Both the position numbers and the translations under genes were made by a program. This document shows, one piece after another, positions 4,971 through 60,480 of a stretch of 64,000 nt of DNA. A model generated the notes under the pieces. The model saw only the letters and a list, made by a program, of their open reading frames with translations, was not told the DNA's origin and did not search any database. Source of the DNA: Heptranchias perlo (taxonomy: Eukaryota); assembly GCF_035084215.1 (NCBI RefSeq), contig NC_090327.1:141608001-141672000 (forward strand), given 5' to 3'. Position 1 is the first letter of the stretch, and every line of letters starts with the position of its first letter.

Positions 4971-5294
4971 GCTTAAATATACATTCAAATAAGGAGCAGG
5001 AATCAGCAGAGGGAAAAGTTTCAGAAAATCAATGGATTTCACTGAATCCGGGTAATTCTGTCCTGGATCCACGATACAGATCAGAGTAAATAATAATTAT
5101 CAATAGAAAGGGGCAAAATCAAAGCTCGGGGTAATCCCATGTGTGTGGGAATCCCCTGAGAAGAAGGGCCCTTCTCACCGCCAGACAGGCGACATTTCCC
5201 GGTGGATCTTTACACAGTGAGCGGCTCTTTCAATATAAACTGGGGCTGGAGAGAGGCTTTGGGAAATGAACTTCCGGATTACAGGGAGGAGGCG

Positions 5295-5410
5295 CGTGAT
5301 TGGTGGCAGACACTAAATCTGATTGGATATTTAAAGGGACCAATCAGAAAGTTAGAGTTCACCCATCCCTCATTAGCATGGGGCGATGACGTCAGCCTAT
5401 TTAATCCGAG
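5295..5410 (+). promoter_or_regulatory. H2B promoter
   Basis: Three CCAAT/ATTGG boxes, octamer-like ATTAGCAT (5372-5379), CRE TGACGTCA (5387-5394) and TATTTAA (~5398). Confidence 0.8.
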
Positions 5411-5458
5411 CTCGGAGCGGATTTGGTTCATTTCTGGATCTGAAATTGAGTTTGGAAA

Positions 5459-5833
5459 ATGCCTGAGGACAAGAAAGCAGCTCCCAAGAAGGGCGCCAAG
5501 AAAACCCTGAATAAAGCACCAGCCAAGGGCGGGAAGAAGCGGAGAAAGTCGAGGAAGGAGAGTTATTCCATCTACATCTACAAAGTGATGAAGCAGGTTC
5601 ACCCCGACACCGGCATCTCCTCCAAGGCCATGGGCATCATGAACTCCTTTGTGAACGATATTTTCGAGCGCATCGCGGGTGAGGCTTCCCGCCTGGCCCA
5701 TTACAACAAGCGGGCGACCATCAGTTCCCGGGAGATCCAGACCGCCGTGCGCCTGCTGCTGCCCGGAGAACTGGCCAAGCACGCCGTGTCGGAAGGGACA
5801 AAGGCGGTGACCAAGTACACCAGCTCCAAGTAA
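5459..5833 (+). CDS. H2B: Histone H2B (replication-dependent type), intact ORF
   Basis: 124 aa, MPEDKK...[25 protein letters not shown]...AVTKYTSSK; intronless. Confidence 0.97.
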
Positions 5834-5871
5834 AGCTCCACCATCAACTGAAAAAAAAACCCGAACACAAA

Positions 5872-5887
5872 GTCTCTTTTAAGAGCC
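5872..5887 (+). terminator. Histone 3' stem-loop, mutated (G2>T)
   Basis: GTCTCTTTTAAGAGCC followed by ACCCA; consensus is GGCTCTTTT(C/A)AGAGCC. Confidence 0.88.
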
Positions 5888-13099: not shown

Positions 13100-14330
13100 A
13101 ATTCTGAATTAATCCTGAGACATCTGCGCATGCGTAATTCAGCCCGCCCCCAAAGCGAATTGTTGGTGAGCAGAGGAGCGCATGCGCGCTCCCCTCCCCC
13201 TGCTCGGCCTGTGGGGCCATTCCCTCAGTGAGTGGAAGAAGATGGTTTAAAACAGGCGGGAATGGAGAGATCACGGCCCCGGGGTAAGGGAGCAAACAGC
13301 AGCCTCGTTACAGCAGCTCATCGCTCCGGGACCGTGTCCGCAGATGGGCTCAGAGATCGGCATTGAGACCGGGGTAAGTTCAGGGGGAGTCCGGGGGCTG
13401 TTTGTAAGAGGCGGAGTGGATCAGGAACTGGTCCCGGAACATGGAGTGAGCGGGGAAGGGAGAGACCATTCTGGGGCTGTGTGTGTACAGGGTGTGTCCA
13501 GGGGAAGGGAGACAGAATGGGAAGAACCTGCTATTTAAAATCATTGCTGCTTTCTCTCCCCAAACCAGTAGTGAATGTTCCTGGTTTAGGTCCAGTCTCA
13601 CCCTGTTTGTTGTTATTGGACAGTGAACAGTGGAAACAGAGCCGGACAGTAAGGATGTGGGGAGTTATACAAAGATCATCTATTGCAGGCATCAGGTGAG
13701 ACGTGCGGAGGACACATTTTAAACAGCGACTGTTTGGTTTCGGTTGAACGGTTAGTCCCATGGGAGAGGGGATTAGAAACCTGACCTGAACCTGGTATGT
13801 AGAAGCTGAGTGTTGTAGTGGAGTCAGACACTTACACTGTATCGCTGGTTTTAATTTGTGGATATTCAAAATAATCATTAACAGAGATATTGAACTGATC
13901 ACTTTTGTATTTTCTACCTCACCGGTTCTTGAGTTACAAACGATATTTTTTCTTCCTGCAGGCAAATCCTTGAATGACCCAGAATAAATGTGATGTTTCC
14001 TCCACCTGAGGCACAAGGAACAGTGCAGCCAGCTCCTTCTCACTCACAGCAGGTACATTATCACCCACAGAGCACGGAGACACAGACAGGTCATCAGTTC
14101 CATATTCTCAGACTGCAGAAGTAGTCAGTCCCACACTGATCCCAGGTTCCAGAGACACATTTTCAATCCAACAGTCAAACAGAGCAGGTGTGGCAGACAC
14201 TGTTTCCAGTTCACCCTAACTCAGTACTGCTGACAGGTAGATACAAAAATCCCAGTCCAAAATCATACTTTCAGGTTGAAAGACACTGTGTCAATTTCAC
14301 AATAGGGCAACTTTAGCTCTGAATTAAATA
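13100..14330 (+). promoter_or_regulatory. CpG-rich promoter block X with putative non-coding exons (copy 1)
   Basis: NRF1-type TGCGCATGCG (13125-13134) and GCGCATGCGC (13178-13187), GC boxes, donor GG|GTAAGT after 13373, acceptor AG 13568, donor after 13695, acceptor 13961. Confidence 0.6.
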
Positions 14331-14559
14331 CCAGATAGAAATCACACATGGTACCCAATTGAAAGGTACAGAATGAATCCCAATAATGTACCCCGAGATT
14401 CAAATCGAATCCTTGCCCAGAATGCACATACGAGTTTAATACATGCAGTATCCATCCAAAGAGTTTTGATCAGCATTTCTCAATTTGATACTGTACATAA
14501 CTTTTGGACCTGTATGCAATTTGTATCTCTTTGGGATTCATTCTGTATATGTCAGTCTT

Positions 14560-17500
14560 TGACAGTGCCAGAGATTGACAGATACACAATGAATCTCATG
14601 TTCACACAGTACCGGAGGCTGCATATATAGAATGAAAAGCACAATCACACATAGTACTGACAAGATACTGAATGAGTCCCACACTCACACACAGTACCAG
14701 AAAGTGAAAGATAAGGAATGAATCTCTCACTTACAGCATCAGAGACTGACAAATACAGAATGAATCCCGCACTCATCGTGTATCAAAGATTGACATATAG
14801 AATGAATCCTGAAGAGATACAAATTGCATACAAGTCCAAAAGTTATGTACAGTATCAGATTGAGAAATGCTGAAAGAAGCTGTAACCTGAGAAAAAAATT
14901 AGATACCAGTTCAGAATGCACTCATAGTATGAGATTTAAAGATACAGCATAAATTCTATTAGTGCAGACTGAGATATTACATACCAGACAAAAATGTCAC
15001 CATATCAGTTTGAAAGGTACATTATCATTCAGAATTGTACTCAAAGTGATACAGATTTAAAATAATCCAAAAAGTGCACACATTATCTGGTTAAAACCTA
15101 AAGCATCAAATCCTAAAGTGTATCCATATTTACCAGTTGAATAATGAGTAAAACTCTTTAAACATTAAGGTATTAAAGCTATAGTTTTCAACACCATAAT
15201 GTAATCTGAGAGAAAAATTACACACAGATACAGAATGAGCCTCACAGACAGATACAGTACCAGGGACAGGGAGACACAGAAAACATTCCACACTCACACA
15301 CAGTACCAGAGACTGACAGATACAGAATATATCCCACACTGATATACAGTACCAGAGACTGACAAATACTGAGTTCATCCCACACTCACATCAAGTAGCA
15401 GGGATGGAAAGATACAGAATGAATTCCACACTCACACAATGTCAGAGACTGTATATTTGGATGAATCGCACACACTCATAAAGTACCAGAAACTGACAGG
15501 TAATTTAAGGAAGGATGTCCTTGCCATGGAGGGAGTGCAACAAAGGTTTACCAGACTGATTTCTTGGATGGCAGACTGACGTATGAGGAGAGATTGGGTC
15601 GACTAGGCCTATATTCACTCGAGTTTAGAAGAATTAGAGGTGATCTCATCAAAACATATAAAATTCTAACAGGACTAGGCAGACAAGATGCAGGGAGGAT
15701 ATTCCCGATGGCTGGGGAGTCCAGAACCAGGGGTCACAGTCTCAGGATACTGGGTATGCCATTTGGAACGGAGATGAGGAGAAATTTCTTCACTCAGAGG
15801 GTGGTGAACCTGTGGAATTCTCTACCACAGAAGGCAGTGGAGGCCAAGACATTAAATATATTCAAGAAGGAGATAGATATATTTCTTAATGCAAAAGGGA
15901 TCAAGGGATATGGGGATAAAGAGGGAACAGGGTACTGAATTAGACGATCAGCCATGATCATTTTGATTGGTGGAGCAGGCCCGAAGGGCCGAATGGCCTA
16001 CTCTTGCTCCTATTTTCTATGATTTCTATATCAGTTTGAAAGATACAGTGTAATTCACAATTGTGTTCAGAGATAGAGATTTACTAGTAGTCTAAAAAGC
16101 ACACACTACCTGATGAAAACCTACAGCATCAAATTAAAACTACATCCATACTACCAATTATATACTGTGCGAGAAACTATACATTATGATATTAATGCAA
16201 GTTTTGAACGACACACTGCAAACGGAGATGCCAATTACATAGAGATACAGAATGAATCCCACATTCACATACAGTACCAGAGACTGACAGATACAGAATG
16301 AATCCTGCACTCACACTATGTAACCGTGCCTGACAGATTCAGAATGACTCTTACTTTCACACAGCACCAGTGACTCACAGGTAAAGAATGAATCCCACAC
16401 TCACACACAGTATCTGAGACTGACAGATACAGAATGAATCCAACACTCAAAAGCCTCAGTCTGACAGATACAGAAGTTATATTATTCACATACAATACCA
16501 GAGACTGACAGATTCAGAATGAAACCCTCACTCACAAACAGTACCAGAGACTGATAGATACAGAATGAATCCCACACTCACACAATGTACCAGAGACTGA
16601 CAGATTCAGAATGAATACTACATTTACACAGAACCAATGACTCAAAAGTAAATAATGAATCCCACACTCACATACAGTATTAGAGACTGACAGGTAGACA
16701 ATGAATCCCACACTCTCAAACATTACCTCAGACTTACAGATATAGAAGTTATATTATTCACATACAATACCAGAGACTAACAGACACAGAATGAATCCCA
16801 CACATACATGTAGTGCTAGAGACTGACTGACACAGAATGAATCTCAGTCTCAAATTACCAGAAACTAACAGGCACGGAATGAATCCCACACTCACATGTA
16901 GTGCTAGAGACTGACTGAGACAGAATGAATCTCAGTCTCAAATTACCAGAGACTAACAGACACAGAATGAATCCCTCACTCACTTACAGTACTAGAGATT
17001 GAGAGACACAGACTGAATCCCAACTCACACACAGTACCAGAGAGTGACAGCTGGAGAATCAATCTCACTCACACACAGTACCAGGGACTGAGAGACACAG
17101 AATGTATACCTTATTCACAGACAGTACTAGAAACTGATAGATACAAAATGAATCACACTCTTACACAAAAAATCAGAGACTGACAGATAAAGAATGGATC
17201 CCACACTCACACGTAGTATGAGACTGACAGATACAGAATGAATTCCACACTCACACACAGTACAAGAGACTGACAACTACAGAATGAATTCCACACTCAT
17301 GTACAGTACCAGATACTGAGAGACAGAGAATCAATCCCAAACTCACAAACAGTACCATAGACTGACACATACAGAATGAATCCCTCACCACAAACAGTAG
17401 CAGAGACTGAGAGGCACAGAATGAATAACTTACTCATACACAGTGCAAAAAACTGACCAGTACAGAATGTTTCTCACACTCACAAACTGTACCATAGACT

Positions 17501-18950
17501 AACAGATACAAAATCAATCCCGCATTCAGAAACAGTACCAGGGACTGACAGATTCAGAATGAATCCTACATTCACACAGCACCTGTGTCTCACAGGTAAA
17601 GAATGAATTCCACACTCACATACACTATTAGAGACTGACAGATACGGAAGAAATTCAACACTCTTAAACAGTACCTCAGACTGACAGATACAGAATGAAT
17701 ACCACACTCATATACAGTACCAGAGATGGATAGATATGGAATAAATACCTCATTTGTACATTCTTCCTGAGACTGACAGATACAGAATGAATCCCTCACT
17801 CACACACAGTACCAGGGACTGGGAGGCAGAGAGTGAATACCCTACTCACAGTATGAGAAACTGACCAATATGGAATGAATCCCACACTCACACACAGTAT
17901 GAGAAACTGACCATACGGAATGAATCCCACACTCACACACAGTATGAGAAACTGACCAATATGGAATGAATCCCACACTCACACACAGTATGAGAAACTG
18001 ACCAATACGGAATGAATCCCACACTCACACACAGTATGAGAAACTGACCAATATGGAATGAATCCCACACTCACACACAGTATGAGAAACTGACCAATAC
18101 GGAATGAATCCCACACTCACACACAGTATGAGAAACTGACCAATACGGAATGAATCCCACACTCACACACTGTATGAGAAACTGACCAATACGGAATGAA
18201 TCCCACACTCACACACAGTATGAGAAACTGACCAATATGGAATGAATCCCACACTCACACACAGTATGGGAAACTGACCAATACAGAATGAATCCCACAC
18301 TCACACACAGTATGGGAAACTGACCAATACGGAATGAATCCCACACTCACACACAGTATGGGAAACTGACCAATATGGAATGAATCCCACACTCACACAC
18401 AGTATGGGAAACTGACCAATACGGAATGAATCCCACACTCACACACAGTATGAGAAACTGACCAATACGGAATGAATCCCACACTCACATGCAGAACCAG
18501 ACATTGACAGATACAGAATTAATCACAAACCAGAAACTGAGAGATACTGAATGAATCTGAGTCGCACAAAGTACCAGAGACTGACTGACACAGAATCAAT
18601 CTCACACTCACAAACAGTATTAGAGAATGACAGATACAGAATAAATCGCACACTGAAACATAGTACCAGAAACTGAGAGATATGGAATGAATCTCACACT
18701 CACAAACATTATCAGAGACTGACTGATACTGAATCAATCTAACTTTCATACATTATTAGAGACTGTTAGAAACAGAGTCAATCCCTCACCCACACACTAT
18801 ACCAGATCCAGAGAGATACAGAATGAATCCACTCTCATACACAGTATCAGAGACTGATGGACACACGATAAATCCCTCACTCACACACACTACCAGAGGC
18901 TGACAAGTACAGAATGAATCCTACTCTCACACACAGTACCAGGGACTGTC
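14560..18950 (+). repeat. 46-bp satellite domain with a homogeneous sub-array at ~17845-18490
   Basis: About 14 near-perfect copies of agtatgagaaactgaccaata(c/t)ggaatgaatcccacactcacacac; degenerate flanks; CR1 inside. Confidence 0.93.
15500..16030 (+). mobile_element. CR1 3' end
   Basis: ORF 15564..15938 (RRIRGDLIKTYK, FFTQRVVNLWNSLP) and tail. Confidence 0.92.
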
Positions 18951-19192
18951 ATATTGCTTCACATTTTCAGAGTGAAAAATAAAAATAATCAGTTCATTAT
19001 AACATTTTTATTTACTCACTCCTTTGTTGTAAATATTCCCGGATATTTCACTGTACATTGAGCAGTATTTCTGATTGATTTCTCAGGACACTTCAAATAA
19101 ACCAAACAAAAATAAGGATAAAAACTCAGCACAACAATGAAATTTTAACAAGAAACAGTCAAAAGAGAAAGGGATGAAATTCAGAAATATTA

Positions 19193-21750: not shown

Positions 21751-22278
21751 CTTGATAACAAGTCTATTATGTGGCACTTTATCAAACCCCTTCTGAAAAA
21801 CATCAACTTACTCCGTTATTTCATCAAAGCACTCAATCACGATATATGGAGGTTTCTGACCCCTCTGAACTGCACTCCCATTTCTGGTTTCTGATTCAGC
21901 GCCGACTCTGAACTATTGAAGCCGCCAGACTGAAGATTACTGCCTAACAAAGAGTTTAAAGGCCGAGTACGGGACCATAGTGGTTATTGGGCTGGACAAG
22001 AATCCCAGGGTTCAAATCCCACCATTCAACGATGATAATGGTCGACTTAAATATACATTCAAATAAGGAGCCGGAATCAGCAGATGGAAAAGCTTCAGAA
22101 AATCAATGAATTTCACTGAATCCGGGTAATTCTGTCCCGGATCCACGGTACAGATCAGAGTAAATAATAATTATCAATAGAAAGGGATAAAATCAAGGCT
22201 CGGGGTAATCCCATGTGTGTGGGAATCCCCTGAGAAGAAGGGCCCTTCTCTCCGCCAGACAGGCGACATTTCCCGGTG

Positions 22279-22638
22279 AAAGCAGCTCCCAAGAAGGGCG
22301 CCAAGAAAAGTCTGAATAAATCGCCAGCAAAGGGCGGGAAGAAGCGGAGAAAGTCGAGGAAGGAGAGTTATTCCATCTACATCTACAAAGTGATGAAGCA
22401 GGTTCACCCCGACACCGGCATCTCCTCCAAGGCCATGGGCATCATGAACTCCTTTGTGAACGATATTTTCGAGCGCATCGCGGGTGAGGCTTCCCGCCTG
22501 GCCCATTACAACAAGCGGGCGACCATCAGTTCCCGGGAGATCCAGACCGCCGTGCGCCTGCTGCTGCCCGGAGAACTGGCCAAGCACGCCGTGTCGGAAG
22601 GGACAAAGGCGGTGACCAAGTACACCAGCTCCAAGTAA
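22279..22638 (+). pseudogene. H2B: H2B lacking promoter and ATG; degenerate stem-loop
   Basis: Upstream flank (cccggtg, equivalent to 5204) is joined directly to AAA GCA GCT; the first 5 codons are missing; agctattttaagaggc at ~22669. Confidence 0.88.
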
Positions 22639-23539
22639 AACTGAAAAAATGAATTGAAAAAATGCAACAGCTATTTTAAGAGGCACCCAGAACCCCTCTG
22701 AAAGAGCTGCATTTCCTATATATTTGCTTGGTATCATTTTAATACGGCAATATTTGTATTCCAATCTGATAATGAACTGATATTGAAACTGCCCCGTTGA
22801 AATCCCTGGCCCATAAACTGAACACGAGTTTGCGATCCGCTCTTTCCCTTTCGTTTTGTTCTTAAAGCGTTACTGTTCTGGCCTCTCTCACCCCCTGAAT
22901 AATCTCTTCAGCAGTTCCTTTCTCTCTGAATCTAGTCTCCGAAATGTTGACTGACTGATGTGAAAATCGCCTTATTAACAGCAACCCCACCCTTTGCAGT
23001 ATCACAGCGGAATAGGGGCAGATGGAGAGCGCCGTCCGGGTCCTTTTCACAGAAGCACTCTCGGCTTTGAGAAGGGATCGATTTATAACATGTCTCTTTT
23101 ACAAACACTAAATTGAAATATGTCCCTTCACGGAATGCTGTAAATGGGGCTTTAGTCCCGTCCGGTACAGTTTGAAAGCGATGGTAGAATGAGCTATAAT
23201 TTGAACCAGATTTTAAAACAGCGCCAGCGATTGGTGACGGGTAAAGCAGAATAAGACAGGATAAAAAGAATGGGTTCAAAATCTTGTGCTCAGGGCGACA
23301 TTGATCTAAATCCGATCCTTTACTACACTGAAATTGGCGGGCTTTTGAAATTCATCAATTTACTGATCTGTCCGTTGAGGCCGGCAAATCCCGCCCTCTT
23401 CTGATTCCCAGCTATCTGTTTGGTTAATGAAATAGGCAAATGAGATGTACCAAAGCACAACCAATCAGATGAACTTTCAGAAAGGTAAATACAGCAGTAT
23501 TGCGTCATTCTTTGTGAAAGTGTTTGTGAGATTGTAGAA

Positions 23540-25027: not shown

Positions 25028-25486
<459 letters not shown>

Positions 25487-29579: not shown

Positions 29580-30191
29580 TTACTTCTTTTTGCCCGCTGC
29601 TTTCTTTGGCTTTGCTGAATTCGGCTTGGGCTTGGCCCTCGGATTTTGTACCTTCTTCGCCTTCGCCTTTACTGCTTTGACTGAGTTGGGGGTCTTGGGC
29701 TTCTTAACAGCCGCTTTCTTTTTAATAAGTGGTGATTTCACCGCCTTCGTGATCGATTTCTTGGCCGCTGATTTCTTGACGGCAGTTTTTTTGACCGCTG
29801 GTTTCTTTACGGAAGATTTCTTGGTTGTTTGTTTCTTCACCTTCTTCACCACTTTTGTCTGGGCTTCCTTCTTAGCGACTTTGAAGGAGCCCGAGGCGCC
29901 CGTGCCCTTGATCTGGACCAGGGAGCCTTTTTCCACATGTTTGTTGATATTTAATTTGATCTGGGTCCGGAGCTTCTCCACATCCAGGCCGTTGGTGGCC
30001 AGAACCTTCTTTATCGCGGCCAGGGAGATCCCCTTGCGATCCTTACAATCCGCCACAATCTTGAGGATCTGTTCTCCCAACCTGGGACCGGATGTCTTGG
30101 GTCGGGGAACCGCCTTCTTCTTCTTGGGAGCATTGGTCTGAGCGGCGGCGGCGGTAGGAGGGGCCGTTTCGGCGGCTGCGGTATCCGTCAT
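29580..30191 (-). CDS. H1: Linker histone H1, intact ORF
   Basis: 203 aa; globular domain (DRKGISLAAIKK...LVQIKGTGASGSFK) and K/A/P-rich tail. Confidence 0.95.
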   Translation of the reverse strand: MTDTAAAETAPPTAAAAQTNAPKKKKAVPRPKTSGPRLGEQILKIVADCKDRKGISLAAIKKVLATNGLDVEKLRTQIKLNINKHVEKGSLVQIKGTGASGSFKVAKKEAQTKVVKKVKKQTTKKSSVKKPAVKKTAVKKSAAKKSITKAVKSPLIKKKAAVKKPKTPNSVKAVKAKAKKVQNPRAKPKPNSAKPKKAAGKKK

Positions 30192-31262
30192 GTCCCGGAC
30201 TCTGTCGAAAATCTCTCTGACAGCCAGAGCTGATCAGAAATGAAACGAGAGGCGGCGGCACAGAGCAATTTAAAGGCACAGAGCGGACCGGGAGGAGACA
30301 ACCTGATGTCAGCTCACAGCCCCTCCAGCCTCTCTGTGTTACTCTCTCCTCTTAAACTCCCGGATTCCAATTAAAATCGGGCACTCCAGAGTCCCAGACT
30401 GGCCCTTTCCTATCTCGAACACCGGAATGTTTGCTGTCGAAAATCTTAAGCCGAAATTAAATGTATCAGTTTCGTTTGAAACCATTTCATTGCTGCACTG
30501 ATCGCGCTGTCTCATCCGATCGCTGACCTGATCTCCGTTTTTCTGCTGAAATCTTGATTTGAACTAAAACTTTATGTTAAATTTCCACTCCTGAGCTTGG
30601 CAGGGGAGGAGGGCGATCTTTTGACAGGGTTTTAAAAAAAAAGTACACAAAAGGGACTCGGAAATCCGGCGATGAGGGTCGACACACAAACACACGGACA
30701 TTAATCGAACCCGCCCGCCCCTTTAACACTCTCTCTGACACAAAGTTCACATCCGCACATTGACAGGACAAACTGTTCGCCTGATTGACAATTCCCGGGA
30801 CAGGCTTTCCTCCCCGCTCGGCCTGTGCTGCGGATTCTCGGGGGTTAGTTGTAGTTTCCCAGCTCAGTAACTGTTAAACACTCTGAGGCCGGCGCTCCTC
30901 ACAGTGTCTGGTCCCACATTCAGGGACAGGAGCCAATCACAACTGTGGCTGTGATAATCCATATCTGGTTTTAAATTATTATATTGTTCGCAGAAATATG
31001 ATTAGTTAAGATGAAAATTCAGATTATCCGCTCCAGGTTTCTCCAGTCTCTCTGTGTTCCTCTCTCCTCCTAAACTAACTGACAGATAATAGTAACTGGT
31101 GTCCTATCGATCCCATTGTCAACACCCAGAGACGGCTGGTTGCTGAATAAATTCAACACTCACAGACAGTGTCAGAGAGTTACAGACTGTTTTTGTCAAC
31201 CTTTCCTTACAGGACTGGAGACAGATAAACGCACCGTCAGGCCGGCTCATACATAATAGAAG

Positions 31263-34059: not shown

Positions 34060-35350
34060 GAATTAAACCTGATATCTGCGCATGCGTCATTCAGCCCCGC
34101 ACCAGCGCGGATTGTTGGTGAACAGAAGAGCGCATGCGCGCTCCCCTCCCCCTGCTCGGCCTGTGGGGCCATTCCCTCAGTGAGTGGAAGAAGATGGTTT
34201 AAAACAGGCGGGAATGGAGAGATCACGGCCCCGGGGTAAGGGAGCAAACAGCAGCCTCGTTACAGCAGCTCATCGCTCCGGGACCGTGTCCGCAGATGGG
34301 CTCAGAGATCGGCATTGAGACCGGGGTAAGTTCAGGGGGAGTCCGGGGGCTGTTTGTAAGAGGCGGAGTGGATCAGGAACTGGTCCCGGAACATGGAGTG
34401 AGGGGGGAAGGGAGAGACCATTCTGGGGCTGTGTGTGTACAGGGTGTGTCCAGGGTAAGGGAGACAGAATGGGAAGAACCTGCTATTTAAAATCATTGCT
34501 GCTTTCTCTCCCCAAACCAGTGGTGAATGTTCCTGGTTCAGGTCCAGTCTCACCCTGTTTGTTGTTATTGGACAGTGAACAGTGGAAACAGAGCCGGAAA
34601 GTAAGGATGTGGGGAGTTATACAAAGAGCATCTATTGCAGGCATCAGGTGAGAAGTGTGAAGGACACATTTTAAACAGCGACTGTTTGGTTTCGGTTGAA
34701 CGGTTAGTGCCCTGGGAGAGGGGATTAGAAACCTGACCTGTGCAAAGGTCCCTGCCCCATCGGGTAGTCCCATTCATGGACCAGTGCAGGGATTGGGTTG
34801 TGTCTGGATGTCAATAAATTGTTGTAAAACAGCCGACCACACCTGGTATGCAGAAGCTGAGTGCTGCAGCACTGCAGTGGAGTCAGACACTGACACTGTT
34901 TGTATCTCTGGTTTTCATTTGTGGATATTAAAATGATTATTAATGGAGATATTAAACTGATCACGTTTGTATTTTCTACCTCACTGGTTCTTGAGTTACA
35001 AGAGATAATTTTTCTTCCTGCAGGTAAATTCTTGAAGGACTCAGAATAAACGTCATGTTTCCTGCACCTGAGGCACAACGAACAGTGCAGCCAGCTCCTT
35101 CTCACACACAGTAGGTGCATTATCACCCACAGAGCACGGAGTTTCAGACAGCAGAAGTAGTCAGTCAAACACTGATCCCAAGTAGCAAAGATGCACGATC
35201 AATTCAATGGTCAGAGGCGGAGATCCAGATGATTCAATTTCACCTCAACTCAGTACCACTGACAGGTAGATACATAAATCCCAGTCCAAAATCACACCCA
35301 CTGTTGCTTGAAATGCACTGCGTCAATCTCACAATATTGCAGCCTTAGCT
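34060..35350 (+). promoter_or_regulatory. Promoter block X, copy 2
   Basis: Near-identical to 13100-13790 over the core; NRF1 motifs and splice signals retained. Confidence 0.6.
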
Positions 35351-35653
35351 ACAAACAAAATAGCAGATGGAACTGACACGCGGCACCCGTTTGAAAGATA
35401 CAGCATTAGCCCCGATAATATAACCCGAGATTCAACTTGAATAGCGAGCAGAACTCACACATGTTATGAGTTTAAAAGATGCCGAATTCATCCCAATTCT
35501 GTATCCTGAGATACAAATTACATACCAGTCCAAAACTCACGTACAGTATCAGTGAGAGATGCCGTAAGACAATATAACCTGAGATACAAAATTAGATACC
35601 AGTTCAGAACTCACTCATATTATGAAAATGAAAGTTACAATATCTATTCGATT

Positions 35654-38627
35654 GTCTCACTAAAAAAAACTGATAATAAGAATAAACCGGACGGACCACC
35701 CGGCATCGGACCACGAGGCACCGGAAATGACAACGGCAAACCAAGCCCAGTCGATCCTGCAAAGTCCTCCTCACTAACATCTGGAGACTTGTGCCAAAAT
35801 TGGGAAAGCTGTCCCACAGACTAGTCAAGCAACAGCCTGACATGGCCATACTCACAGAATAATTTCCTTTCAACGAACGTCTCAGACTCTTCCATCACCA
35901 TCCCTGGGTATGTCCTGTCCCACCGGCAGGACAGACCCACCAGAGGTGGTGGGACAGTGATATACAGTCAGGAGGGAGTGGCCCTGGGAGTCCTCAACAT
36001 TGACTCTGGACCACATGAAATCTCATGGCATCAGGTCAAACATGTGCAAGGAAACCTCCTGCTGATTACCACCTACCGCCCTCCCTCAGCTGAAGAATCA
36101 GTCCTCCTCCATGTTGAACACCTCTTGGAGGAAGCACGGAGGGTAGCAAGGGCACAGAATGTACTCTGGGTGGAGGACTTCAATGTCCATCACCAAGAGT
36201 GCTCGGCAGCACCACTACTGACCAAGCTGGCCGAGTCCTGAAGGACATAATTGAACGACTGGGCCTGCGGCAGGTGGTGAACGAACCAACACGAGGGAAA
36301 AACTTACTTGACCTCGTCCTCACCAATCTACCAGTTGCAGATGCATCTGTCCATGACAGTATTGGTAGGAGTGACCACCGCACAGTCCTCGTGGAGATGA
36401 AGTCCCATCTTCGCACTGAGGACACCATCCAACGTGTTGTGTGGCACTACCACCGTGCTATATGGGATCGATTCAGAACAGATCTAGCAGCTCAAAACTG
36501 GGCATCCATGAGGTGCTGTAGGCCATCAGCAGCAGCAGAATTGTATTCCAGCAAAATCTGTAACCTCATGGCCCGGCATATTCTTCACTCTACCATTACC
36601 CAAAAGCCAGTGGATCAACCGTGGTTCAATGAGGAGTGAGGAAGAGCATGCCAGGAGCAGCACCAGACGTACCTAAAAATGAGGTGCCAACCTGGTGAAG
36701 CTACAATTCAGGACTACATGCATGCTAAACAGCGGAAGCAACATCCTATAGGCGGAGCTAAGCGATTCCACAACTAATGGATCAGATCAAAGCTCTGCAG
36801 TCCTGCCACATCCAGCCGTGAATGGTGGTGGACAATTAAACAACCAACGGGTGGAGGAGGCTCTGCAAACATCCCCATCCTCAATGATGGCAGAATCCAG
36901 CACGTGAGTGCAAAAGACAAGGCAGAAGCGTTTGCAACCATCTTCAGCCAGAAGTGCCAAGTGGATGATCCAGCTCGGCCTCCTCCCAATATCACCAACA
37001 TCACAGAAGCCAGTCTTCAGCCAATTCGATTCACTCCACGTGATATCAAGAAACGGCTGAGTGCACTGGATACAGCAAAAGCTATGGGCCCCAACAACAT
37101 CCCGGCTGTAGTGCTGAAGATTTGTGCTCCAGAACTAGCTGCGCCTCTAGCCAAGCTGTTCCAGTAGAGCTACAACAGTGGCATCTACCCGACAATGTGG
37201 AAAATTGCCCAGGTATGTCCTGTCCAAAAAAGCAGGACAAATCCAATCCGGCCAATTGCCGCCACATCAGTCTACCCTGAATCATCAGCAAAGTGATGGA
37301 AGGTGTCGACAGTGCTATCAAGCGGCATTTACTCACCAATAACCTGCTCACCAATGCTCAGTTTGGGTTCCGCCAGGACCACTCGGCTCCAGACCTCATT
37401 ACAGCCTTGGTCCAAACATGGACAAAAGAGCTGAATTCCAGAGGTGAGGTGAGAGTGACTGCCCTGGACAACAAGGCAGCATTTGACCGAGTGTGGTACC
37501 AAGGAGCCCTAGTACAATTGAAGTCAATTGGAATCAGGGAGAAAACTCTCCAGTGGCTGGAGTCATACCTAGCACGAAGGAAGATGGTAGTGGTTGTTGG
37601 AGGCCAATCATCTCAGCCCCAGGGCATTGCTGCAGCAGCTCCTCTGGGCAGTGTCCTCGGGCCAACTATCTTCAGCTGCTTCATCAATGACCTTCCCTCC
37701 ATCATTTGGTCAGAAATGGGGATATTCGCTGATGATTGCACAGTGTTCCATTCCATTCGCAACCCCTCAAATAATGAAGCAGTCCGAGCCCGTATGCAGC
37801 AAGACCTGGACAACATCCAAGCTTGGGCTCATAAGTGGCAAGTAATATTCGTGCCAGACAAGTGCCAGGCAATGACCATCTCCAACAAGAGAGAGTCTAA
37901 CCACCTCCCCTTGACATTCAACCGCATTACCATCGCCAAATCCCCCACCATCAACATCCTGGGGGTCATCATTGACCAGAAACTTAACTGGACCAGCCAT
38001 ATAAATACTGTGGCTACGAGAGCAGGTCAGAGGCTGGGTATTCTGCGGCGAGTGACTCACCTCCTGACTCCCCAAAGCTCTCCACCATCTACAAGGCTCA
38101 AGTCATGAGTGTGATGGAATACTCTCCACTTGCCTGGATGAGTGCAGCTCCAACAACACTCAAGAAGCTCGACACCATCCAGGACAAAGCAGCCCGCTTG
38201 ATTGGCACTCCATCCACCACCCTAAACATTCACTCCCTTCTCCACCGGCGCACAGTGGCTGCAGTGTGCACCATCCACAGGATGCACTGCAGCAACTCGC
38301 CAAGGCTTCTTCGACAGCACCTCCCAATCCCGTGACCGCTACTATCTAGAAGGACAAGAGCAGCAGGTACATGGGAACAACACCACCTGCACGTTCCCCT
38401 CCAAGTCACACAACATCCCGACTTGGAAATATATCGCCGTTCCTTCATCGTCGCTGGGTCAAAATCCTGGAACTCCCTTCCTAACAGCACTGTGGGAGAA
38501 CCTTCACCACATGGACTGCAGTGGTTCAAGAAGGCGGCTCACCACCACCTTCTCAATGGCAATTAGGGATGAGCAATAAATGCCAGCCTCGCCAGTGAAG
38601 CCCGCATCCCATGAACGAATCAAAAAA
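35654..38627 (+). mobile_element. Near full-length LINE-A (APE + RT), frameshifted
   Basis: APE motifs (TYRPPS, EPTRGKNLLDLVLTN, SDH) then RT; 12-bp TSD atctattcgatt at 35642-35653 and 38628-38639. Confidence 0.95.
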
Positions 38628-51844: not shown

Positions 51845-53250
51845 CAATCTCTGGGACTGTGTATGAAAGTGGGGCTTATTCTGTATCTGTCAGTCTTTGG
51901 TTGTGTGCGTGAGTGTGGGATTCATTCTGTATCTGCCATTCTCTGCTGCTTTATCTCAGTGTGGGATTCATTCTGTAATTCAGTCTCTGAGACAATGTGC
52001 AAGTCTGGATTCATTCTGTATTCTTATTTCAGTTCATAGTATCGTATTTGAAGCTGTATCTTTAATACTTTAAAGTGTATACAGTTTTTCGTCGTGTATT
52101 TAACTTATAAATATGGATACACTTCTCGATTTTCTTTAATCAAACATCGTGTGTGAGTTTTGGAGTAGTATGTAATGTACAGCTCAGTCTGCAATAATGG
52201 AATTAATTCTGTATCTCATTCTGACATGAGATTTTTGGACTGGTGTGTAATATGTAGCTCAGCCTGCACTAATGGAATTGATACTGAATCTTTCAATCTG
52301 AGATTTTTGGACTGGTATGTAACATGTCGCTCAGTCTGTGCTAATGGAATTGGTATTATATATTTGAGTCCAATACGGTATGAGATTGTCGGACTGCTAT
52401 ATAATGTGTGGCTCAGTCTGCACTAATGGAATTGATACTGTATCTTTCAGTCGAACATTGTATGAGATTTTTGGACTATTATGTAATGTGTAACATAATC
52501 TGCAGTAATGTGACTGAATTCATTCTGTATCTGTCTGACTGTGGTACTGTGTGATTCATTCTGTATCTGTTAGTATGTGTGTGAGTATGGGATTCATTCT
52601 TTATATGTCCTTGGTACTGAATGTCAGTGTAGGATTCATGCTGTATTTGTCATCTCTGGCACCATACGTGAGTGTGGGATTCACTCTGTGTTTGTCAGTC
52701 TCGAGTGCTGTATGTGAGTTTGGGATTCCTTCTGTGTCTCTGGTACTGTATCTGAGTGTGAGATTAATTATGTATTTGCATGTAATTATTCACTATTGTA
52801 GCTTTAATATCTTAATGTTTAAAATATTTTTCTCATTATTTAATTGTTAAACATGGATACACTTTAGGATTTGAAGCTCTAGGTTGTAATCAGATAATTT
52901 CTGTGTTTTTTGGACAACCATTAAATCTGTATCTCTGTGAGCACTATTGTGAATGATGATGTATCTTTCAAACTGATATGGTGAAATTTTGAATTGGTCC
53001 ATAATGTGTAGCTCAGTCTGCACTAATGTAATTGATACTGTATCTTTCAATCTAATAGTGGATGAGAATTTTTGGACTGGTATGTAATGTGTATCTCAGT
53101 CTGCACTAATAGAATTGATAATGTATCTTTAAATCTCATATCATGAGTGCATTCTAAACTGGTATCTAATTTGTTTCCCAGGTTATATTATCTTTCAGCA
53201 TTTCTCAATCTGATACTGTACATAGGTTTTGGATTTGTATGCAATTTGAA
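51845..53250 (-). repeat. Inverted degenerate 46-bp satellite mixed with a 72-82 bp repeat
   Basis: gtgtgggattcattctgt units; gagatt(t/g)t(t/c)gg at 52228, 52300, 52382 and 52464. Confidence 0.8.
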
Positions 53251-55496
53251 TGTCATTGTACACCATTCAGATGGATACTGCATGTATTAAACTAACGTGT
53301 GTGTGTTTGTGAGAGAGAGTTCTGGGCTAGTATTTAATTGAAATCTCGGGTTACATAATTGGGAAATAATTTTGTACCTTCCAATCGGGTAACATGAGCA
53401 ATTTCTATCCAACCTGCTCTTGTAGCCACAGTACTTATGCGGCTGGTCCAGTTAAGTTTCTGGTCAATGTTGACCCCCAGGATGTTGATGGTGGGGGATT
53501 TGGCGATGGTAATGCCGTTGAATGTCAAGGGGAGGTGATTATGTTGGAGATGGTCATTGCCTGGCACTTCTCTGGCACGAATGTTACTTGCCACTTATCA
53601 GCCCAAGCCTGGATATTGTCCAGGTCTCGCTGCATGTGGGCACTGACTGCTTCATTATCTGAGGGGTTGCAAATGGAACTGAACTCTGTGCAATCATCAG
53701 CAAACATCCCAGTTTCTAACCTTATGTTGGAGGGAAGGTCATTGATGAAGCAGCTGAAGATGGTTGGGCCTCGAACACTGCCCTGAGGAACTCCTGCAGC
53801 AATGCCCTGGGGCTGAGATGATTGGCCTTCAATAACCACTACCATCTTCCTTTGTGCTGAGTATGACTAAAGCCTCTGGCGAGTTTTCCCCCCTGACTAC
53901 CATTGACTTCAATTGCACTAGGGCTCCTTGGTGCCACACTCGGTCAAATGCTGCCTTGATGTCAAGAGCAGTCACTCTCACCTCACCTTTGGAATTCAGC
54001 TCTTTTGTCAATGTTTGCACCAAGGCAGTAATGAGGTCAGGAGCCAAGTTGTCCTGGCGGAAACCAAACTAAGCATCGGTGAGCAGGTTATTGGTGAGTA
54101 AGTGCCACTTTTTAGCACTGTCGACGACACCTTCTGTCACTTTGCTGATGATTGAGAGTAGACTGATGGGCTGGTAATTGGCTGGATTGGATTTGTCCTG
54201 CTTTTTGTGCACAGGACATACCTGGGAAATTTTCCACAGTGTCGAACAGATGCCAGTGTTCCAGCTGTACTGGAACAGTTTGGTTAAAGGCACTGCTAGT
54301 TCTGGAGCACAAATCCTTGCTACTACAGTCGGGATGTTGTTGGGGCCTTAGCCTTTGTTGTATTCAGTGCATTCAGCCATTTCTTGATATCATGTGGAGT
54401 GAATTAAATTGGCTGAAGACTGGCTTCTGTGACGGTGGGGATATTGGGAGGAGGCCGAGATGGATCATCCAGTCGGCACTTCTGGCTGAAAATGGTTGCA
54501 AACGCTTCAGCCTTGTCTTTTCTACTCATGTGCTGGACTTCGCCATCATTGAGGATGGGGATGTTTGCAGATCCTCCTCCTCCCGTCAGTTTTTAGTTGT
54601 TTAATTGTCAACCACCATTCACGACTGGATGTGGCAGGACTGCAGAGCTTTGATCTGATCCGTTGGTTGTGGAATCACTTAGCTCTGTCTATAGTAAGTC
54701 GCTTCCGAACATAAAAGTGAACTGTGAGACCTTCTACAAGTAAAAAAAAGATTAATGAAGACAAATGTAGGTCCCTTACTGTCAGAAACGGGAGAATTTA
54801 TAATCGGGAATAAGGAAATAGTTCAAGGAAAACAAAACAAATAATTTGGTTCTGTCTTCATGGAAGAGGACACAAATAACTTCCCAGAAATGCTATGGAA
54901 CCAAGGGAGTAGTGAGAAGGAGGAATTAAAGGAAATTAGTACTAGTAAAAAAATAGTGCTGGAGAAATTAATGGGACTGAAAGCCGATAAATCCCCAGGG
55001 CCTGATAATCTGCTTCCCAGGGCACTAAAAGAGGTCGCCATGGAAATAGTGGATTCATTAGTTGTCACCTTCCAAAATGCCATAGATTATGGAACAGTTC
55101 CTGCAGATTGGAGGGTGGTAAATGTAACCACGCTATTTAAAAAAAGGAGGGAGAGAGAAAACAGGGAACGACAGACTGGTTAGCTGAACATCAGTAGTAG
55201 AGAAAATGCTAGAGTCTATTATAAAGGAGGTGATAACAGGACACCTGGAAAATATCAACGGGATTAGACAAAGTCAACATGAATTTATGAAAGGGAAATC
55301 ATCATCGACAAACCTACTGGAGTTTATGGAGGATGTAATTGGTAGAATAGATAAGGGAGAACTAGTGCAGGTGGTTTAATTGGATTTTCAGAAAGCCTTT
55401 TATAAAGTCCCACATAAGGTGATTGTGCAAAATTAAAGCAAATGGGATTGGGGTAATATACTGGCATGGATTGAAAATTGGTTATCAGACAGGAAA

Positions 55497-56590
55497 TAGG
55501 GGGAAAACTCTCCCAGGGCTGGAGTCATACCGAGCACAAAGGAAGATGGTAGTGGTTGTTGGAGACCAATCATCTCAGCCCCAGGATATTGCTGCAGGAG
55601 TTGCTCAGGGCAGTGTCCTAGGCCCAACCATCTTCAGCTGCTTCATCAATGACCTTCCCTCCATCATAAGGTCAGAAATGGGGATGCTCGCTGATGATTG
55701 CACAGTGTTCAGTTCCATTCGCAACCCCTCAAATAATGAAGCAGTCCGTGTCCGCATGCAGCAAGACCTGGACATCATCCAGGCTTGGGCTCATAACTGG
55801 CAAGTAACATTCACGCCAGATAAGTGCCAGGCAGTGACTATCTCCAAAAAGAGAGAGTCTAACCACCTCCCCTTGACATTCAGCGGCATTACCATCACCG
55901 AATCCCCCACCATCAACATCCTGGGGGTCATCATTGACTAGAAACTTAACTGGACCAGCCATATAAATACTGTGGCTACGAGAGCAGGTCGGAGGCTGGG
56001 TATTCTGCGGCGAGTGACTCACCTCCTGACTCCCCAAAGCCTTTCCACCATCTACATGCACAAGTCAGGAGTGTGATGGAATACTCTCCACTTGCTTGGA
56101 TGAGTGCAGCTCCAACAACACTCAAGAAGCTCGACACCATCCAAGATAAAGCAGCCCGCTTGATTGGCACCCCATCCACCACCCTAAACATTCACTCCCT
56201 TCACCACCGGTGCAGAGTGGCTGCAGTGTGTACCATCCACAGGATGCACTGCAGCAACTCGCCAAGGCTTCTTCGACAGCACCTCCCAAACCCGCGACCT
56301 CTACCACCGAGAAGGACAAGAGCAACAGGCACATGGGAACAACACCACCTGCACGTTCCCCTCCAAGTCACACACCATCCCGACTTGGAAATATATCGCC
56401 GTTCCTTCATCGTCGCTGGGTCAAAATTCTGGAACTCCCTACCTAACAGCACTGTGGGAGAACCTTCACCACATGGACTGCAGTGGTTCAAGAAGGCGGC
56501 TCACCACCATCTTCTCAAGGGCAATTAGGGATGGGCAATAAATGCTGGCCTCGCCAATGACACCCACATCCCATGAACGAATAAAAAAAA
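55497..56590 (+). mobile_element. LINE-A nested in CR1
   Basis: RT C-terminal half and tail; CR1 resumes at gtaggaataaatg. Confidence 0.93.
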
Positions 56591-57489
56591 CGTAGGAATA
56601 AATGAGTCTTTTTCGGGGTGACAGTGACTAGTGGGGTACCGCAGGGATCAGTGCTTGGGCCCCAGCTATTCACAATATATATCAATGATTTGGATGAGGG
56701 AACCAAATGTAATATTTCCAAGTTTGCTGACGACACAAAACTAGGTGGGATCGTGAGTTGTGAGGAGGATGCAAAGAGGCTTCAAGGCAATTCAGAAAAG
56801 TTGAGTGAGTGGGCAAATACATGGAAGATGCAGTATAATTTGGATAAATGTGAAGTTATCCACTTCGGAAGGAAAAACAGAAAGGCAGAGTATTATTTAA
56901 ATTGTGATAAATTGTGAAATGTTGATGTAAAAAGGGACCTGGGTGTCCTTGTACACCAGTCACTGAAAGCAAACAAGCAGGTGCAGCAAGCAGTTAGGAA
57001 GGCAAATGGTATGTTGGCCTTCATTGCAAGAGGATTTGACTACAGGAGCAAAGATGTCTTGCTGCAGTTATACAGGGCCTTGATGAGACCACATCTCGAG
57101 TATTGTGTGCAGTTTTGCTCTGCTTACCTAAGAAAGGATATACTTGCCATGGAGGGAGTGCAGCGTAGGTTCACTGGACTGCTTCCTGGGATGGCAGGAC
57201 TGTCGTATGAGGAGAGATTGGGTCGACTCAGCTTGTATTCACTCGAGTTTAGAAGAATGAGAGGGGATCTTATTGAAACGTATAAAATTCTGACAGGACT
57301 AGACAGACTGGATGCAGGGAGGATGTTTCCCCTGCCTGGGGGGTCCAGAATCAGGGGTCACAGTCTCAGGATACGGGGTAGGACACTTAAGACTGAGATG
57401 AGGGGAAATTTCTTCACTCAGAGGGTGGTGAACCTGTGGAATTCTCTACCGCAGAAGGCTGTGGAGGCCAAGTCACTGAATATATTTAA

Positions 57490-57683
57490 TTGTAAACAAT
57501 TTTACAACACCAAGTTATAGTCCAGCAATTTTATTTTAAATTCACAAGCTTTCGGAGGCTACCTCCTTCGTCGGCTACCTCCTTCGTCAGGTGAACGATG
57601 TGAAAATGAAATCCTCAAGATGAAATCGCATTTATGATAAATGCAATTGTCAACCCCAGTCCATCACCGGCATCTCCACATCA
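57490..57683. mobile_element. Penelope pLTR fragment with internal inversion and hammerhead (57541-57595, minus)
   Basis: 13-bp TSD tgaatatatttaa at 57477-57489 and 57684-57696; 16-nt tandem duplication inside the hammerhead. Confidence 0.85.
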
Positions 57684-58860
57684 TGAATATATTTAAGAAG
57701 GAGCCAGATAGATTTCTAGATAAAAAAGGCATTAAGGGCTATGGGGATGGAGCAGGAATATGGTATTGAGATAGAGGATCAGCCATGATCATATTGAATG
57801 GCAGAGCAAGCTCGAAGGGCCGAATGGCCGACTCCTGCTCCTATTTTCTATGTTTCACCAGATTGGCACCTCATTTTTATGTATGCCTGGTGCTGCTCCT
57901 GGCATGCTCTTCTACACTCCTCATTGAACCAGCGTTGATCCCCTGGCTTGTTGGTAATGGTAGAGTGAGGAATATGCCGGGCCATGAGGTTACAGATTGT
58001 GCTGGAATACAATTCTGCTGCTGCTGATGGCCCACAGTACCTCCTAAATGCCCAGTTTTGAGCTGCTAGATCTGAATCTATCCCATTTAGCACGGTGGTA
58101 GTGCCACACAACACGTTAGATGGTGACCTCAGTGCGAAGACAGGACTTCATCTCCACAATACTGTGGGTGGTCACTCCTACCAATACTGTCATGGACAGG
58201 TAGATTGGTGAGGACGAGGTCAAGTAGGTTTTTCCCTCGTGTTGGTTCGCTCAACACCTGCCGGATGCTCAGTCTGGCAGCTATGTCCATCAGGACTCAG
58301 CCAGCTCGATCAGTAGTGGTGCTACCGAGCCATTCTTTGGTGATGGACATTGAAGTCCCCCACCCAGAGTAAATTCTGTGCCCTTACTACCCTCGGTGCT
58401 TCCTCCAAGTGGTGCTTAACATGGAGGAGGACTGATTCATCAGCTGAGGGAGGACGGTAGGTGGTAATCAGCAGGAGGTTTCGTTGCCCATGTTTGTCCT
58501 GATGCCATGAGATTTCATGGGGTCCAGAGTCAATGTTGAGGACTCCCAGGGCCACTCCCTCCTGACTGTATATCACTGTACCACCATCTCTGGTGATTCT
58601 GTCCTGCCGGTGGGACAGGACGTACCCAGGGATGGTGATGGAAGAGTCTGGGACGTTGGCTGAAAGGTATGATTCTGTGAGTATGGCTATTTCAGGCTGT
58701 TGCTTGACTCCTCTGTGGGACAGCTCTCCCAATTTTGGCACAAGTCCCCAGATGTCAGTGAGGAGGACTTTGCAGGATTTGCCTTTGTCGTGTCCGGTGC
58801 CTAGTGGCCCATCTGGTTTTATTCTTACTATGACTTTTTGTAGCGAGATTGCACAACTGA

Positions 58861-59165
58861 GGGCGATTAAGAATCAACCACATTGCTGTGGGTCTGGAGT
58901 CACATATGGGCCAGACCGGGTAAGGAGAGCAGGTTTCGTTCCCTAAAGGACATTAAGTGAACCGGATGGGTTTTTACGACAATTACCCGTAGTTTCATGG
59001 TCACCATTACTGATACTAGTATTTTTAAATTCCGGATTTTTATTTTAATTTATTCAATATAAATTCCCCAGCTGCCGTTGCGGGATTTGAACTTATGACT
59101 CCAGAATATTAGTCCAGGCCTCTGAATTACTCGTCCAGTAACATAATTACTTTGCTACCGTAATG
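58861..59165 (-). mobile_element. tRNA-derived (SINE-like) head abutting the LINE-A 5' end
   Basis: B box GTTCAAATCC (59083-59092) and degenerate A box TAGCAAAGTAA (59147-59157). Confidence 0.7.
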
Positions 59166-59169
59166 CATA

Positions 59170-60480
59170 TTTTCTTAGTGTAAGATTGACACAGTACCTT
59201 TCAAGCTGAAAGTGTGATTTTGGACTGGGATTTTTGTATCTACCTGTCAGCAGTACTGAGTTCGGGTGAACTGGAAACAGTGTCTGCCTCACCTGCTCTG
59301 TTTGACTGTTGGATTGAATTTGTGTCTCTGGAACTTTGGATCAGTGTGGGACTGACTACTTCTGCAGTCTGAGACTGTGGAACTGATGACCTGTCTGTGT
59401 CTCCGTGCTCTGTGGGTGATAATGTACCTACTGTGTGTGAGAAGGAGCTGGCTGCACTGTTCCTTGTGCCTCAGGTGGAGGAAACTTCACATTTATTCTG
59501 GGGCATTCAAGGATTTGCCTGTAGGGAGAAAAGATCTCTTGTAACTCAAGAACAGGTGAGGTAGAAAATACAAAAGTGATCAGTTAAATCCCTTTTAATA
59601 ATCATTTTGAATATACACAAATGAAAACCAGCGATACAAACAGTGTCAGTGTCTGACTCCACTGCAGTGCTGCAGCACTCAGCTTCTGCATACCAGGTGT
59701 GCTGGGCTGTTTTACAACAAGTTAGCGACATCCAGACACAACCCAATCCCTGAACTGATCCATGAATGAGACTAGCCGATGGGGCAGGGACTTTTGTACA
59801 GGTCAGGTTTCTAATCCCCTCTCCCATGGGCACTAACCGTTCAACAGCCGCTGTTTAAAATGTGTCCTTCACACTTCTCACCTGATGCCTGCAATAGATG
59901 ATCTTTGTATAACTCCCCACATCCTTACTGTCCGGCTCTGTTTCCACTGTTCACTGTCCAATAACAACAAACAGGGTGAGACTGGACCGAAACCAGGAAC
60001 ATTCACTACTGGTTTGGGGAGAGAAAGCAGCAATGATTTTAAATAGCAGGTTCTTCCCATTCTGTCTCCCTTACCCTGGACACACCCTGTGCACACACAG
60101 CCCCAGAATGGTCTCTCCCTTCCCCCCTCACTCCATGTTCCGGGACCAGTTTCTGATCCACTCCGCCTCTTACAAACAGCCCCCGGACTCCCCCTGAACT
60201 TACCCCGGTCTCAATGCCGATCTCTGAGCCCATCTGCGGACACGGTCCCGGAGCGATGAGCTGCTGTAACGAGGCTGCTGTTTGCTCCCTTACCCCGGGG
60301 CCGTGATCTCTCCATTCCCGCCTGTTTTAAACCATCTTCTTCCACTCACTGAGGGAATGGCCCCACAGGCCGAGCAGGGGGAGGGGAGCGCGCATGCGCT
60401 CTTCTGCTCACCAACACCCAGCTCTGGGGGCGGGGCTGAATGACGCATGCGCAGATATCAGGTTTAATTCTGAATACAAA
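59170..60480 (-). promoter_or_regulatory. Promoter block X, copy 3 (inverted)
   Basis: Reverse complement of 34060-35340; homology to copy 2 extends to ~61600 (equivalent to ~31210). Confidence 0.6.

Follow-up and report, generated by a model that had tools for sequence, protein, structure and literature searches.

A tRNA-like A/B-box 5' end in an elasmobranch Zenon LINE and its possible transcription by Pol III

LINEs are usually regarded as Pol II mRNAs and SINEs as non-coding Pol III RNAs. In the window (the whole 64,000-nt stretch of Heptranchias perlo DNA that was analysed), a tRNA-like head with A and B boxes stands directly before a LINE on the minus strand. This locus raises the question whether head and LINE form one element and, if so, which polymerase would transcribe it.

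The window copy and its insertion site

Boxes in the head were assigned using the A-box and B-box consensus. The features are as follows:

59065..59162, minus: tRNA-like head with a duplicated anticodon-arm segment; the family start is GGG+TACGG
59147..59157, minus: A box, decayed in the window copy, TAGCAAAGTAA; family version TAGCATAGTGG
59083..59093, minus: B box, AGTTCAAATCC
58850..59064, minus: 5' UTR, an A/T-rich spacer and a conserved body, common to the short deletion forms
58839..58841, minus: candidate non-AUG start, ACA in the window copy and ACG in 37 of 38 young copies
57854..58838, minus: 5' part of the ORF, encoding the APE endonuclease and a basic N-terminus; the reading frame is shifted in the window copy
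54708..57853, no strand assigned: later nested insertions, comprising pieces of CR1 and, on the plus strand at 55492-56590, the 3' fragment of a LINE from the same family
53408..54707, minus: RT part of the ORF, stopping at position ~2715 of ~3318
14304..14334, plus: empty paralogous site
35336..35385: second empty paralogous site

The head of the window copy has its first base at 59162 on the minus strand and lacks the family's leading GGG; the base equivalent to 59162 is the start in 30 of 39 other matches. As the earlier note had described, the A/B-box head leads straight on to body and APE frame, with no A tail in between. Flank homology to the first empty paralogue stops at 59176 (= 14304) and restarts at 53409 (= 14334), leaving a gap of 29 nt, and the breakpoints in the second (35336/35385) are 48 nt apart, in keeping with the claim that head and LINE occupy a single insertion site. 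The target site duplications that had been expected to enclose both were not found: among 22 complete copies, a repeat of at least 6 nt occurred in one, with 0.22 expected, nothing beyond chance. Because the family makes no such duplications, their absence at the head-LINE junction is uninformative.

Aligned to the natural copy L142, the window copy covers positions 4-1383 and 1417-2715 of ~3318; nested inserts at 57853-54708 total ~3.1 kb, and the final ~600 nt and the A tail are absent. The copy is dead: interrupted, frameshifted and 3'-truncated. The description of a full-length autonomous element headed by a tRNA promoter thus fits the architecture of the family, but not this copy.

The 5' end of the family and its short derivatives

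The simplest objection is that a SINE landed by chance beside a 5'-truncated LINE. Nested repeats are packed densely into the window, and its second long copy (35666-38628) starts at position 346, without a head. The exact junction motif, however, has 8,127 matches genome-wide (reversed control, 0). When copies were chosen by coding sequence (n = 70), 67 reached the head/body and 52 started within 12 nt around one base. The earlier note had staked its reading on recurrence of the junction, and no other shared 5' end was found among these 70 copies. At 20 position-ordered junction loci, 17 matches run on into the ORF, and in 15 the start lies no more than 10 nt from +1; the three that do not reach the ORF are deletions, each with different breakpoints. 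Five other species share this 5' end as well. Chance nesting, already refuted by the junction counts, the 70 copies and the 20 loci, has a negligible probability. The junction of head and LINE is genuine and constitutes the standard 5' end of the family, with a fixed start 8 nt upstream of the A box. The word chimera, used in the earlier note, is apt for a remote origin only: in sharks and rays, elements of this family ordinarily begin with the head.

With both boxes inside the element and shortly after a constant start, the family has the promoter layout of a Type 2 Pol III unit; the B box of young copies (AGTTCAAATCC) deviates from the consensus. Neither ARAGORN nor Rfam calls the window head a tRNA. 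In alignments to genomic tRNAs, it scored z 8.0 to tRNA-Thr(AGT) and 4.5-5.2 to tRNA-Cys, the comparison set comprising nine sequences, Thr and Cys only. The proposed derivation from a tRNA is thus supported by the boxes and these alignments, which suggest a tRNA origin, and not by the two tRNA searches.

Internal deletion of the headed LINE has repeatedly given rise to short SINE-like copies, as had been supposed. Since these forms retain both boxes, they resemble true SINEs. A direct body-to-tail junction, taken from another organism's contigs, had only 2 exact matches in the H. perlo genome. Identity of the body with Deu/SacSINE1 was dropped, as the body is unlike the printed Deu alignments by eye, and UCON3 and Meta gave no match by eye. 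The supplement of Kojima (2018) contains none of five body/tail motifs and does not use the term LFSINE.

Family identity and known systems

By sequence, the family is assigned to the elasmobranch Zenon (CR1 group) described by Stuart et al. 2026 (PMC13343379). Over their first 400 nt, seven published consensus rows match by eye, with head, body and ORF start alike; the APE start is reached in two. The published elements measure 3.2-3.3 kb in five of the seven rows (2.9 and 3.1 kb in the other two) and likewise lack an ORF1 and carry a poly-A tail. The family thus shares with Zenon a single APE+RT ORF without ORF1, a poly-A tail and, by eye, homology to elasmobranch Zenon. Its RT is 40-51% identical to that of mostly unnamed homologues and 33-34% to that of the window CR1. 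The consensus sequences of white shark, whale shark, catshark, stingray and dogfish all open with an A box and a B box, and the sequence between the boxes differs among these five species (both by eye). In contrast, the hagfish and coelacanth consensus sequences (PMC13343379) do not open with the head seen in these species. The text of Stuart et al. 2026 does not mention tRNA, Pol III or a start codon, its supplements do not mention tRNA, and its preprint mentions neither tRNA, promoter nor polymerase. The tRNA-like head of elasmobranch Zenon is thus not mentioned in the paper describing the family (PMC13343379).

Lepidopteran Zenon also spawns short, internally deleted poly-A elements (Persaeus; PMC6740152). 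Persaeus keeps the Zenon 5' end, reportedly without tRNA homology or a Pol III promoter, whereas the shark forms keep A and B boxes. The nearest precedent found is RTE-1_DAn and relatives, LINEs said to contain a tRNA-like sequence (Kojima 2018, PMC5786205). Unlike Zenon, they belong to the RTE clade, and the passage on them describes neither the position of the tRNA-like part nor the polymerase. Bov-tA, CoeSINE4 and SINE2_Gav likewise join a tRNA head to 5' and 3' parts of a LINE; the same paper proposes that the head was added after the deletion and, where it treats them, gives LINE parts only from RTE and Vingi. In shark Zenon, by contrast, the autonomous LINE is itself headed, and a single deletion step yields the SINE. 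SacSINE1 and other Deu-SINEs of sharks (PMC5499810) are tRNA-headed and similar in length to the short forms, but the printed Deu domain is by eye unlike the Zenon body, and the tail with which SacSINE1 is paired is named as L2-2_CM.

Transcription and translation of the intact element

Intact young copies are 3.3 kb long and consist of the tRNA-like head, a body of ~230 nt, a single 973-codon APE-RT frame (Exo_endo_phos and RVT_1) and a short A tail, complete copies ending in GAAT followed by about 8-13 A. The single ORF predicted in the earlier note was thus borne out. The frame is open in 29 of 131 scored protein matches, and the 22 complete young copies share 98.7% pairwise identity. Upstream of the frame lies only a leader of 330-350 nt, with no ORF1. 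An element with this frame is not a SINE proper, which is non-coding and non-autonomous. The first Met of the frame is usually at residue 250, with none before ~250, and the ACG stands at codon 4. By eye, the distance between the ACG position and the APE frame is divisible by three in four of the five published species; the ACG is out of frame in dogfish consensus 1 and 2 and absent from the stingray consensus.

Our preferred reading, to which we assign a probability of roughly 0.65, is that the window holds a dead elasmobranch Zenon with the standard tRNA-like A/B-box 5' end and that the intact 3.3-kb element is probably transcribed by Pol III and translated from a non-AUG codon. The tRNA-like promoter head, the lack of T-runs and the missing AUG start together make Pol III transcription likely. 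TFIIIC and Pol III would start at +1, directed by the internal boxes; because such a promoter is internal, every full-length copy would carry its own. Selection would have removed TTTT, allowing Pol III to traverse the 3.3 kb and to terminate at the first flanking T-run. Translation of the resulting uncapped RNA would probably begin, with low efficiency, at the codon-4 ACG, and the APE-RT protein would copy this RNA by target-primed reverse transcription. A deletion of the middle would leave head, body and tail as a ready-made SINE.

The sense strand is T-poor overall (20%). As the earlier note had anticipated, TTTT is depleted: L142 has 0 TTTT with 4.2 expected (p = 0.02) and 7 TTT with 20.8 expected (0 of 1000 shuffles as low), and its A, C and G runs show no significant depletion. 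TTTT is absent from 20 of the 22 complete young copies, unselected copies hold 8 per 52.3 kb, and the six window CR1 pieces, with 28 in 7.0 kb and 21 expected, are not depleted. For the family majority line, a protein-preserving codon draw gave TTT 5 vs 19 and TTTT 0 vs 3.7 (p = 0.011). Under the stricter null that keeps codon usage, p was 0.10 for TTTT; under a first-order Markov null, 0.11 for TTTT and 0.05 for TTT. Both of these nulls absorb part of the T-run signal themselves. The transcribed strand is thus free of TTTT in most young copies, as in a Type 2 Pol III unit, with a significance that depends on the null. Depletion of Phe was rejected as a separate signal, low Phe being common to 5 of 110 homologues.

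The same architecture could be served by Pol II, from a promoter inside the head/body or in the neighbourhood, the head being an ancient passenger and the T-run poverty a product of base composition and codon bias. LINEs are generally described as Pol II units (Kojima 2018, PMC5786205), the depletion is borderline under the codon-usage and Markov nulls, and a capped RNA is easier to translate. However, A and B boxes are retained in five shark and ray lineages, the 5' end is constant and lies immediately before the A box, the depletion is confined to T runs and not seen in CR1, and a capped RNA would be confronted with several ATGs and stops upstream of the ORF. We consider Pol II transcription unlikely, if a serious rival. 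Further points weigh against our preferred reading: Pol III RNA, described as uncapped and ill-suited to translation (PMC5703244), would have to be translated, the B box is off consensus, and the ACG is out of frame in the dogfish consensus sequences and missing from that of stingray.

The cap problem would be resolved if Pol III RNA served as the insertion template and protein came from certain copies that Pol II now and then transcribes by read-through. Thousands of copies lie inside host transcripts, and contigs from runs whose RNA label is a guess cover the whole element. The ORF, however, has no AUG before residue ~250, so unusual initiation would be required even then, and LINE proteins show cis preference, which favours one RNA. 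Such a division of labour appears decidedly improbable.

If Pol III transcription holds, a successful vertebrate LINE on a tRNA promoter would break the division between LINE/Pol II and SINE/Pol III, as Pol III is normally reserved for short non-coding RNAs whereas the Zenon element is protein-coding; it would also be a natural test case for non-AUG translation of uncapped Pol III RNA. The fuller proposition, for which we would put the odds only slightly above even, is an autonomous "SINE-LINE" of sharks and rays: a 3.3-kb protein-coding Pol III unit with uncapped RNA and a non-AUG start, conserved since sharks and rays diverged, active in recent times and able to generate SINEs by a single internal deletion. 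Loss of the middle of a headed LINE, as opposed to head capture, offers a second route of SINE birth, repeated within one genome. With young intact copies at hand, every step is open to standard reporter assays.

Folding of the leader was no better than that of shuffles (z 0.14), so IRES-like structure is unsupported. Initiation might alternatively occur by re-initiation downstream of an in-frame ATG-GCC-TAG in the leader; read-through of this stop is less likely in the young family, where another in-frame stop, TAA, comes after it.

The head-LINE junction in the window and in the genome

The LINE, a member of the Zenon family, lies in a histone gene cluster dense in LINE pieces, within a genome of 3.25 Gb. 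The window spans 141608001-141672000 of contig C3. Its 5′ features are as follows.

59162, minus strand: 5′ start of the LINE copy
59157-59147, minus strand: A box
59093-59083, minus strand: B box

As the earlier note had described, the tRNA-like head of this copy passes on the minus strand directly into the APE frame, with no intervening A tail. Two paralogous regions inside the window lack the LINE and their flanks join 29 and 48 nt apart, bearing out a single insertion site for head and LINE. The copy is dead and, against the initial description, not full-length: compared with L142, an intact natural copy of about 3318 nt, it matches 4-1383 and 1417-2715. About 3.1 kb of DNA inserted later separates the two parts, and the final 600 nt are absent. 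It also contains an inverted 3′ fragment of its own family at 55492-56590; insertion of LINE copies into or beside one another in opposite orientation was frequent (loci L035, L042, L043, L058 and L071). Genes which we take to be H3, H1 and H4-like histone genes (5279-5878, 22174-22869, 25028-25486, 29580-30233 and 46596-47219) sit in duplicated units, of which the empty paralogues are part. A satellite-like unit of ~46 nt forms long arrays at 16243-18956 and 40944-42273, and its shorter relatives lie near 118-602, 14560-15500 and 51843-52780.

The genome was queried with head plus APE and the best 40 of 7,791 candidates were scored. Among these, the junction was spanned at 39/39 other loci, and the 5′ start fell at the base equivalent to 59162 in 30. 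Following omission of one locus, whose flank repeated another's, 38 of the 39 were fetched; the tail was reached in 30/38 copies and 23 were uninterrupted (3.0-3.3 kb). Using the less biased single queries, 27/30 head-only loci ran on into the LINE, and head or body lay upstream in 29/30 APE-only loci. Loci selected by coding sequence were pooled (70, a few duplicates among them): 52 started within 12 nt of +1, the family's 5′ start base, 15 more in the leader (head and body before the frame) and 3 in the ORF. A common alternative 5′ end, named beforehand as the counter-evidence to look for in other full-length copies, was not found among these 70 loci. A 21-nt junction motif gave 8,127 exact genome matches (control, 0), confirming the expected recurrence at many loci. 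From the first 100 matches listed, 20 were sampled at even steps; 17 ran on into the ORF, the start lay no more than 10 nt from +1 in 15, and 3 were internal deletions. Copies of this family normally begin with the head joined to the LINE.

Reading frame, T-runs and transcription

In a protein search of the genome, 131 of 115,012 candidates were scored, and the frame was open for exactly 973 codons in 29 of the 131. Forty copies were fetched, of which 22 were complete; their pairwise identity was 98.7% and activity was therefore recent. The frame contains Exo_endo_phos, Exo_endo_phos_2 and RVT_1 domains, and the solved structures closest to its protein are L1 ORF2p and R2. Copies end in GAAT and a short A run. 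TSDs had been anticipated around head plus LINE; none were present at the copies checked.

The frame lacks a usual AUG start. It opens behind a TAA, and its first Met is usually residue 250, past the APE domain. An in-frame ATG 27 nt upstream is followed by TAG at its codon 3 in 25/38 copies, and the TAA also intervenes. Length variants between this ATG and APE are mostly multiples of 3 (in frame in 43/57 copies). Frame codon 4 is ACG in 37/38 copies and often ACA in older ones, the product expected of CpG decay. Translation may initiate at this non-AUG ACG or re-initiate after the two-codon upstream frame; the ACG is a candidate start site, which the dogfish and stingray consensus sequences do not fit. 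At about 643-745, the L142 leader holds a ~34-codon upstream frame in the body that ends in TGA, in main-ORF phase in the family majority line.

Pol III terminates at runs of at least four T. TTTT was absent from 20/22 complete young copies, and unselected LINE copies held 8 in 52.3 kb versus 28 in 7.0 kb of window CR1. Under base shuffling, L142 had 7 TTT versus 20.8 expected and 0 TTTT versus 4.2; its A, C and G runs were not significantly low, and T-runs of window CR1 were at or above expectation. Similarly, a protein-preserving codon redraw of the majority line gave 5 TTT versus 19 expected and 0 TTTT versus 3.7. Against this depletion, p for TTTT rose to about 0.10 under nulls preserving codon usage or dinucleotides, and p for TTT was 0.05 under the Markov null; these nulls absorb some of the tested effect, yet they reveal a signal of moderate strength. 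The predicted sense-strand depletion of TTTT was thus seen at that strength.

Judging from the boxes and T-run poverty, Pol III would transcribe the LINE from the internal A and B boxes and stop in flanking DNA (probability roughly 0.65). The main rival, a Pol II promoter driving the LINE with the tRNA head as a passenger, fits a T-run signal that is only moderate, and is rather unlikely beside the fixed start and the boxes. Insertion of the LINE would proceed by target-primed reverse transcription, the established route of other LINEs. Pol III can yield functional mRNA, which is uncapped (work cited in PMC5703244).

Short forms and origin of the head

A SINE-like family of roughly 450 nt consists of head and body followed by the LINE's terminal 110 nt. 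The architecture recurs unchanged in an older LINE subfamily that shares 77-86% identity with the young one; among 17 matches to a motif, 7 led to APE, 8 to tail-like sequence (two duplicates) and 2 ended early. In a tree of 39 bodies, 13 old short forms and 5 old LINEs formed a cluster (support 1.0), and 7 newer short forms were dispersed over the mid and young LINEs. As a caveat, the old short forms had mostly been gathered with a single seed, and the old LINEs with a motif that those forms also carry. Deletion breakpoints vary between short forms. Tree scatter and differing breakpoints therefore support repeated birth by internal deletion, a mode of origin that the earlier note had suggested as possible for related short SINEs. 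Several old short forms (within L179-L208) end GAAT(G/T)AATTTTT-AAAA, with a possible Pol III terminator just 5′ of the A run.

The head may derive from a previous SINE or straight from a tRNA. Its best alignment was to genomic tRNA-Thr(AGT) (z 8.0 versus shuffles; tRNA-Cys 4.5-5.2, these being the two types compared). The anticodon-arm segment is duplicated in most copies; this duplication may explain the lack of a tRNA call for the head by ARAGORN and Rfam. Directly upstream of one short form, a ~21-nt unit that matches this segment is repeated in tandem (L194:47-1331). On contig C23 (loci L230-L259), genes for tRNA-Cys and tRNA-Thr are arranged in large tandem clusters. By eye, the body bore no resemblance to Deu, UCON3 or Meta domains, and no unusual fold was found in it. 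A separate SINE resembling the printed Deu domain lies in the 5′ flank of the LINE copy at L174 and is likely the genome's true SacSINE1-type element.

Zenon elements in other species

Head, body and ORF were present in contigs from other organisms, one of 645 nt (run X9) bridging body and APE; loose contig ends showed the junction of the older LINE as well as one that joins body directly to tail. The Zenon LINE family is already published: Stuart et al. 2026 (PMC13343379) describe elements with poly-A and without ORF1 from coelacanth, hagfish and five elasmobranchs. Ten of the published Zenon consensus rows were compared by eye over the first 400 characters each. All seven elasmobranch rows begin with the same head and body, 3/7 carry the B box GGTTCGAATCC, and none has TTTT within this visible part; hagfish and coelacanth rows have a different start and contain T-runs. 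The head is therefore likely older than the shark-ray split. The accessible text of that paper, its supplement and preprint does not mention a tRNA head, and among the literature hits listed none described a shark tRNA-headed or Pol III-driven autonomous LINE, although Repbase, Dfam or subscription journals may note one. A shark aldo-keto reductase gene model contains a piece 82% identical to the protein of this Zenon LINE, probably an annotation artefact or an exonised insert.
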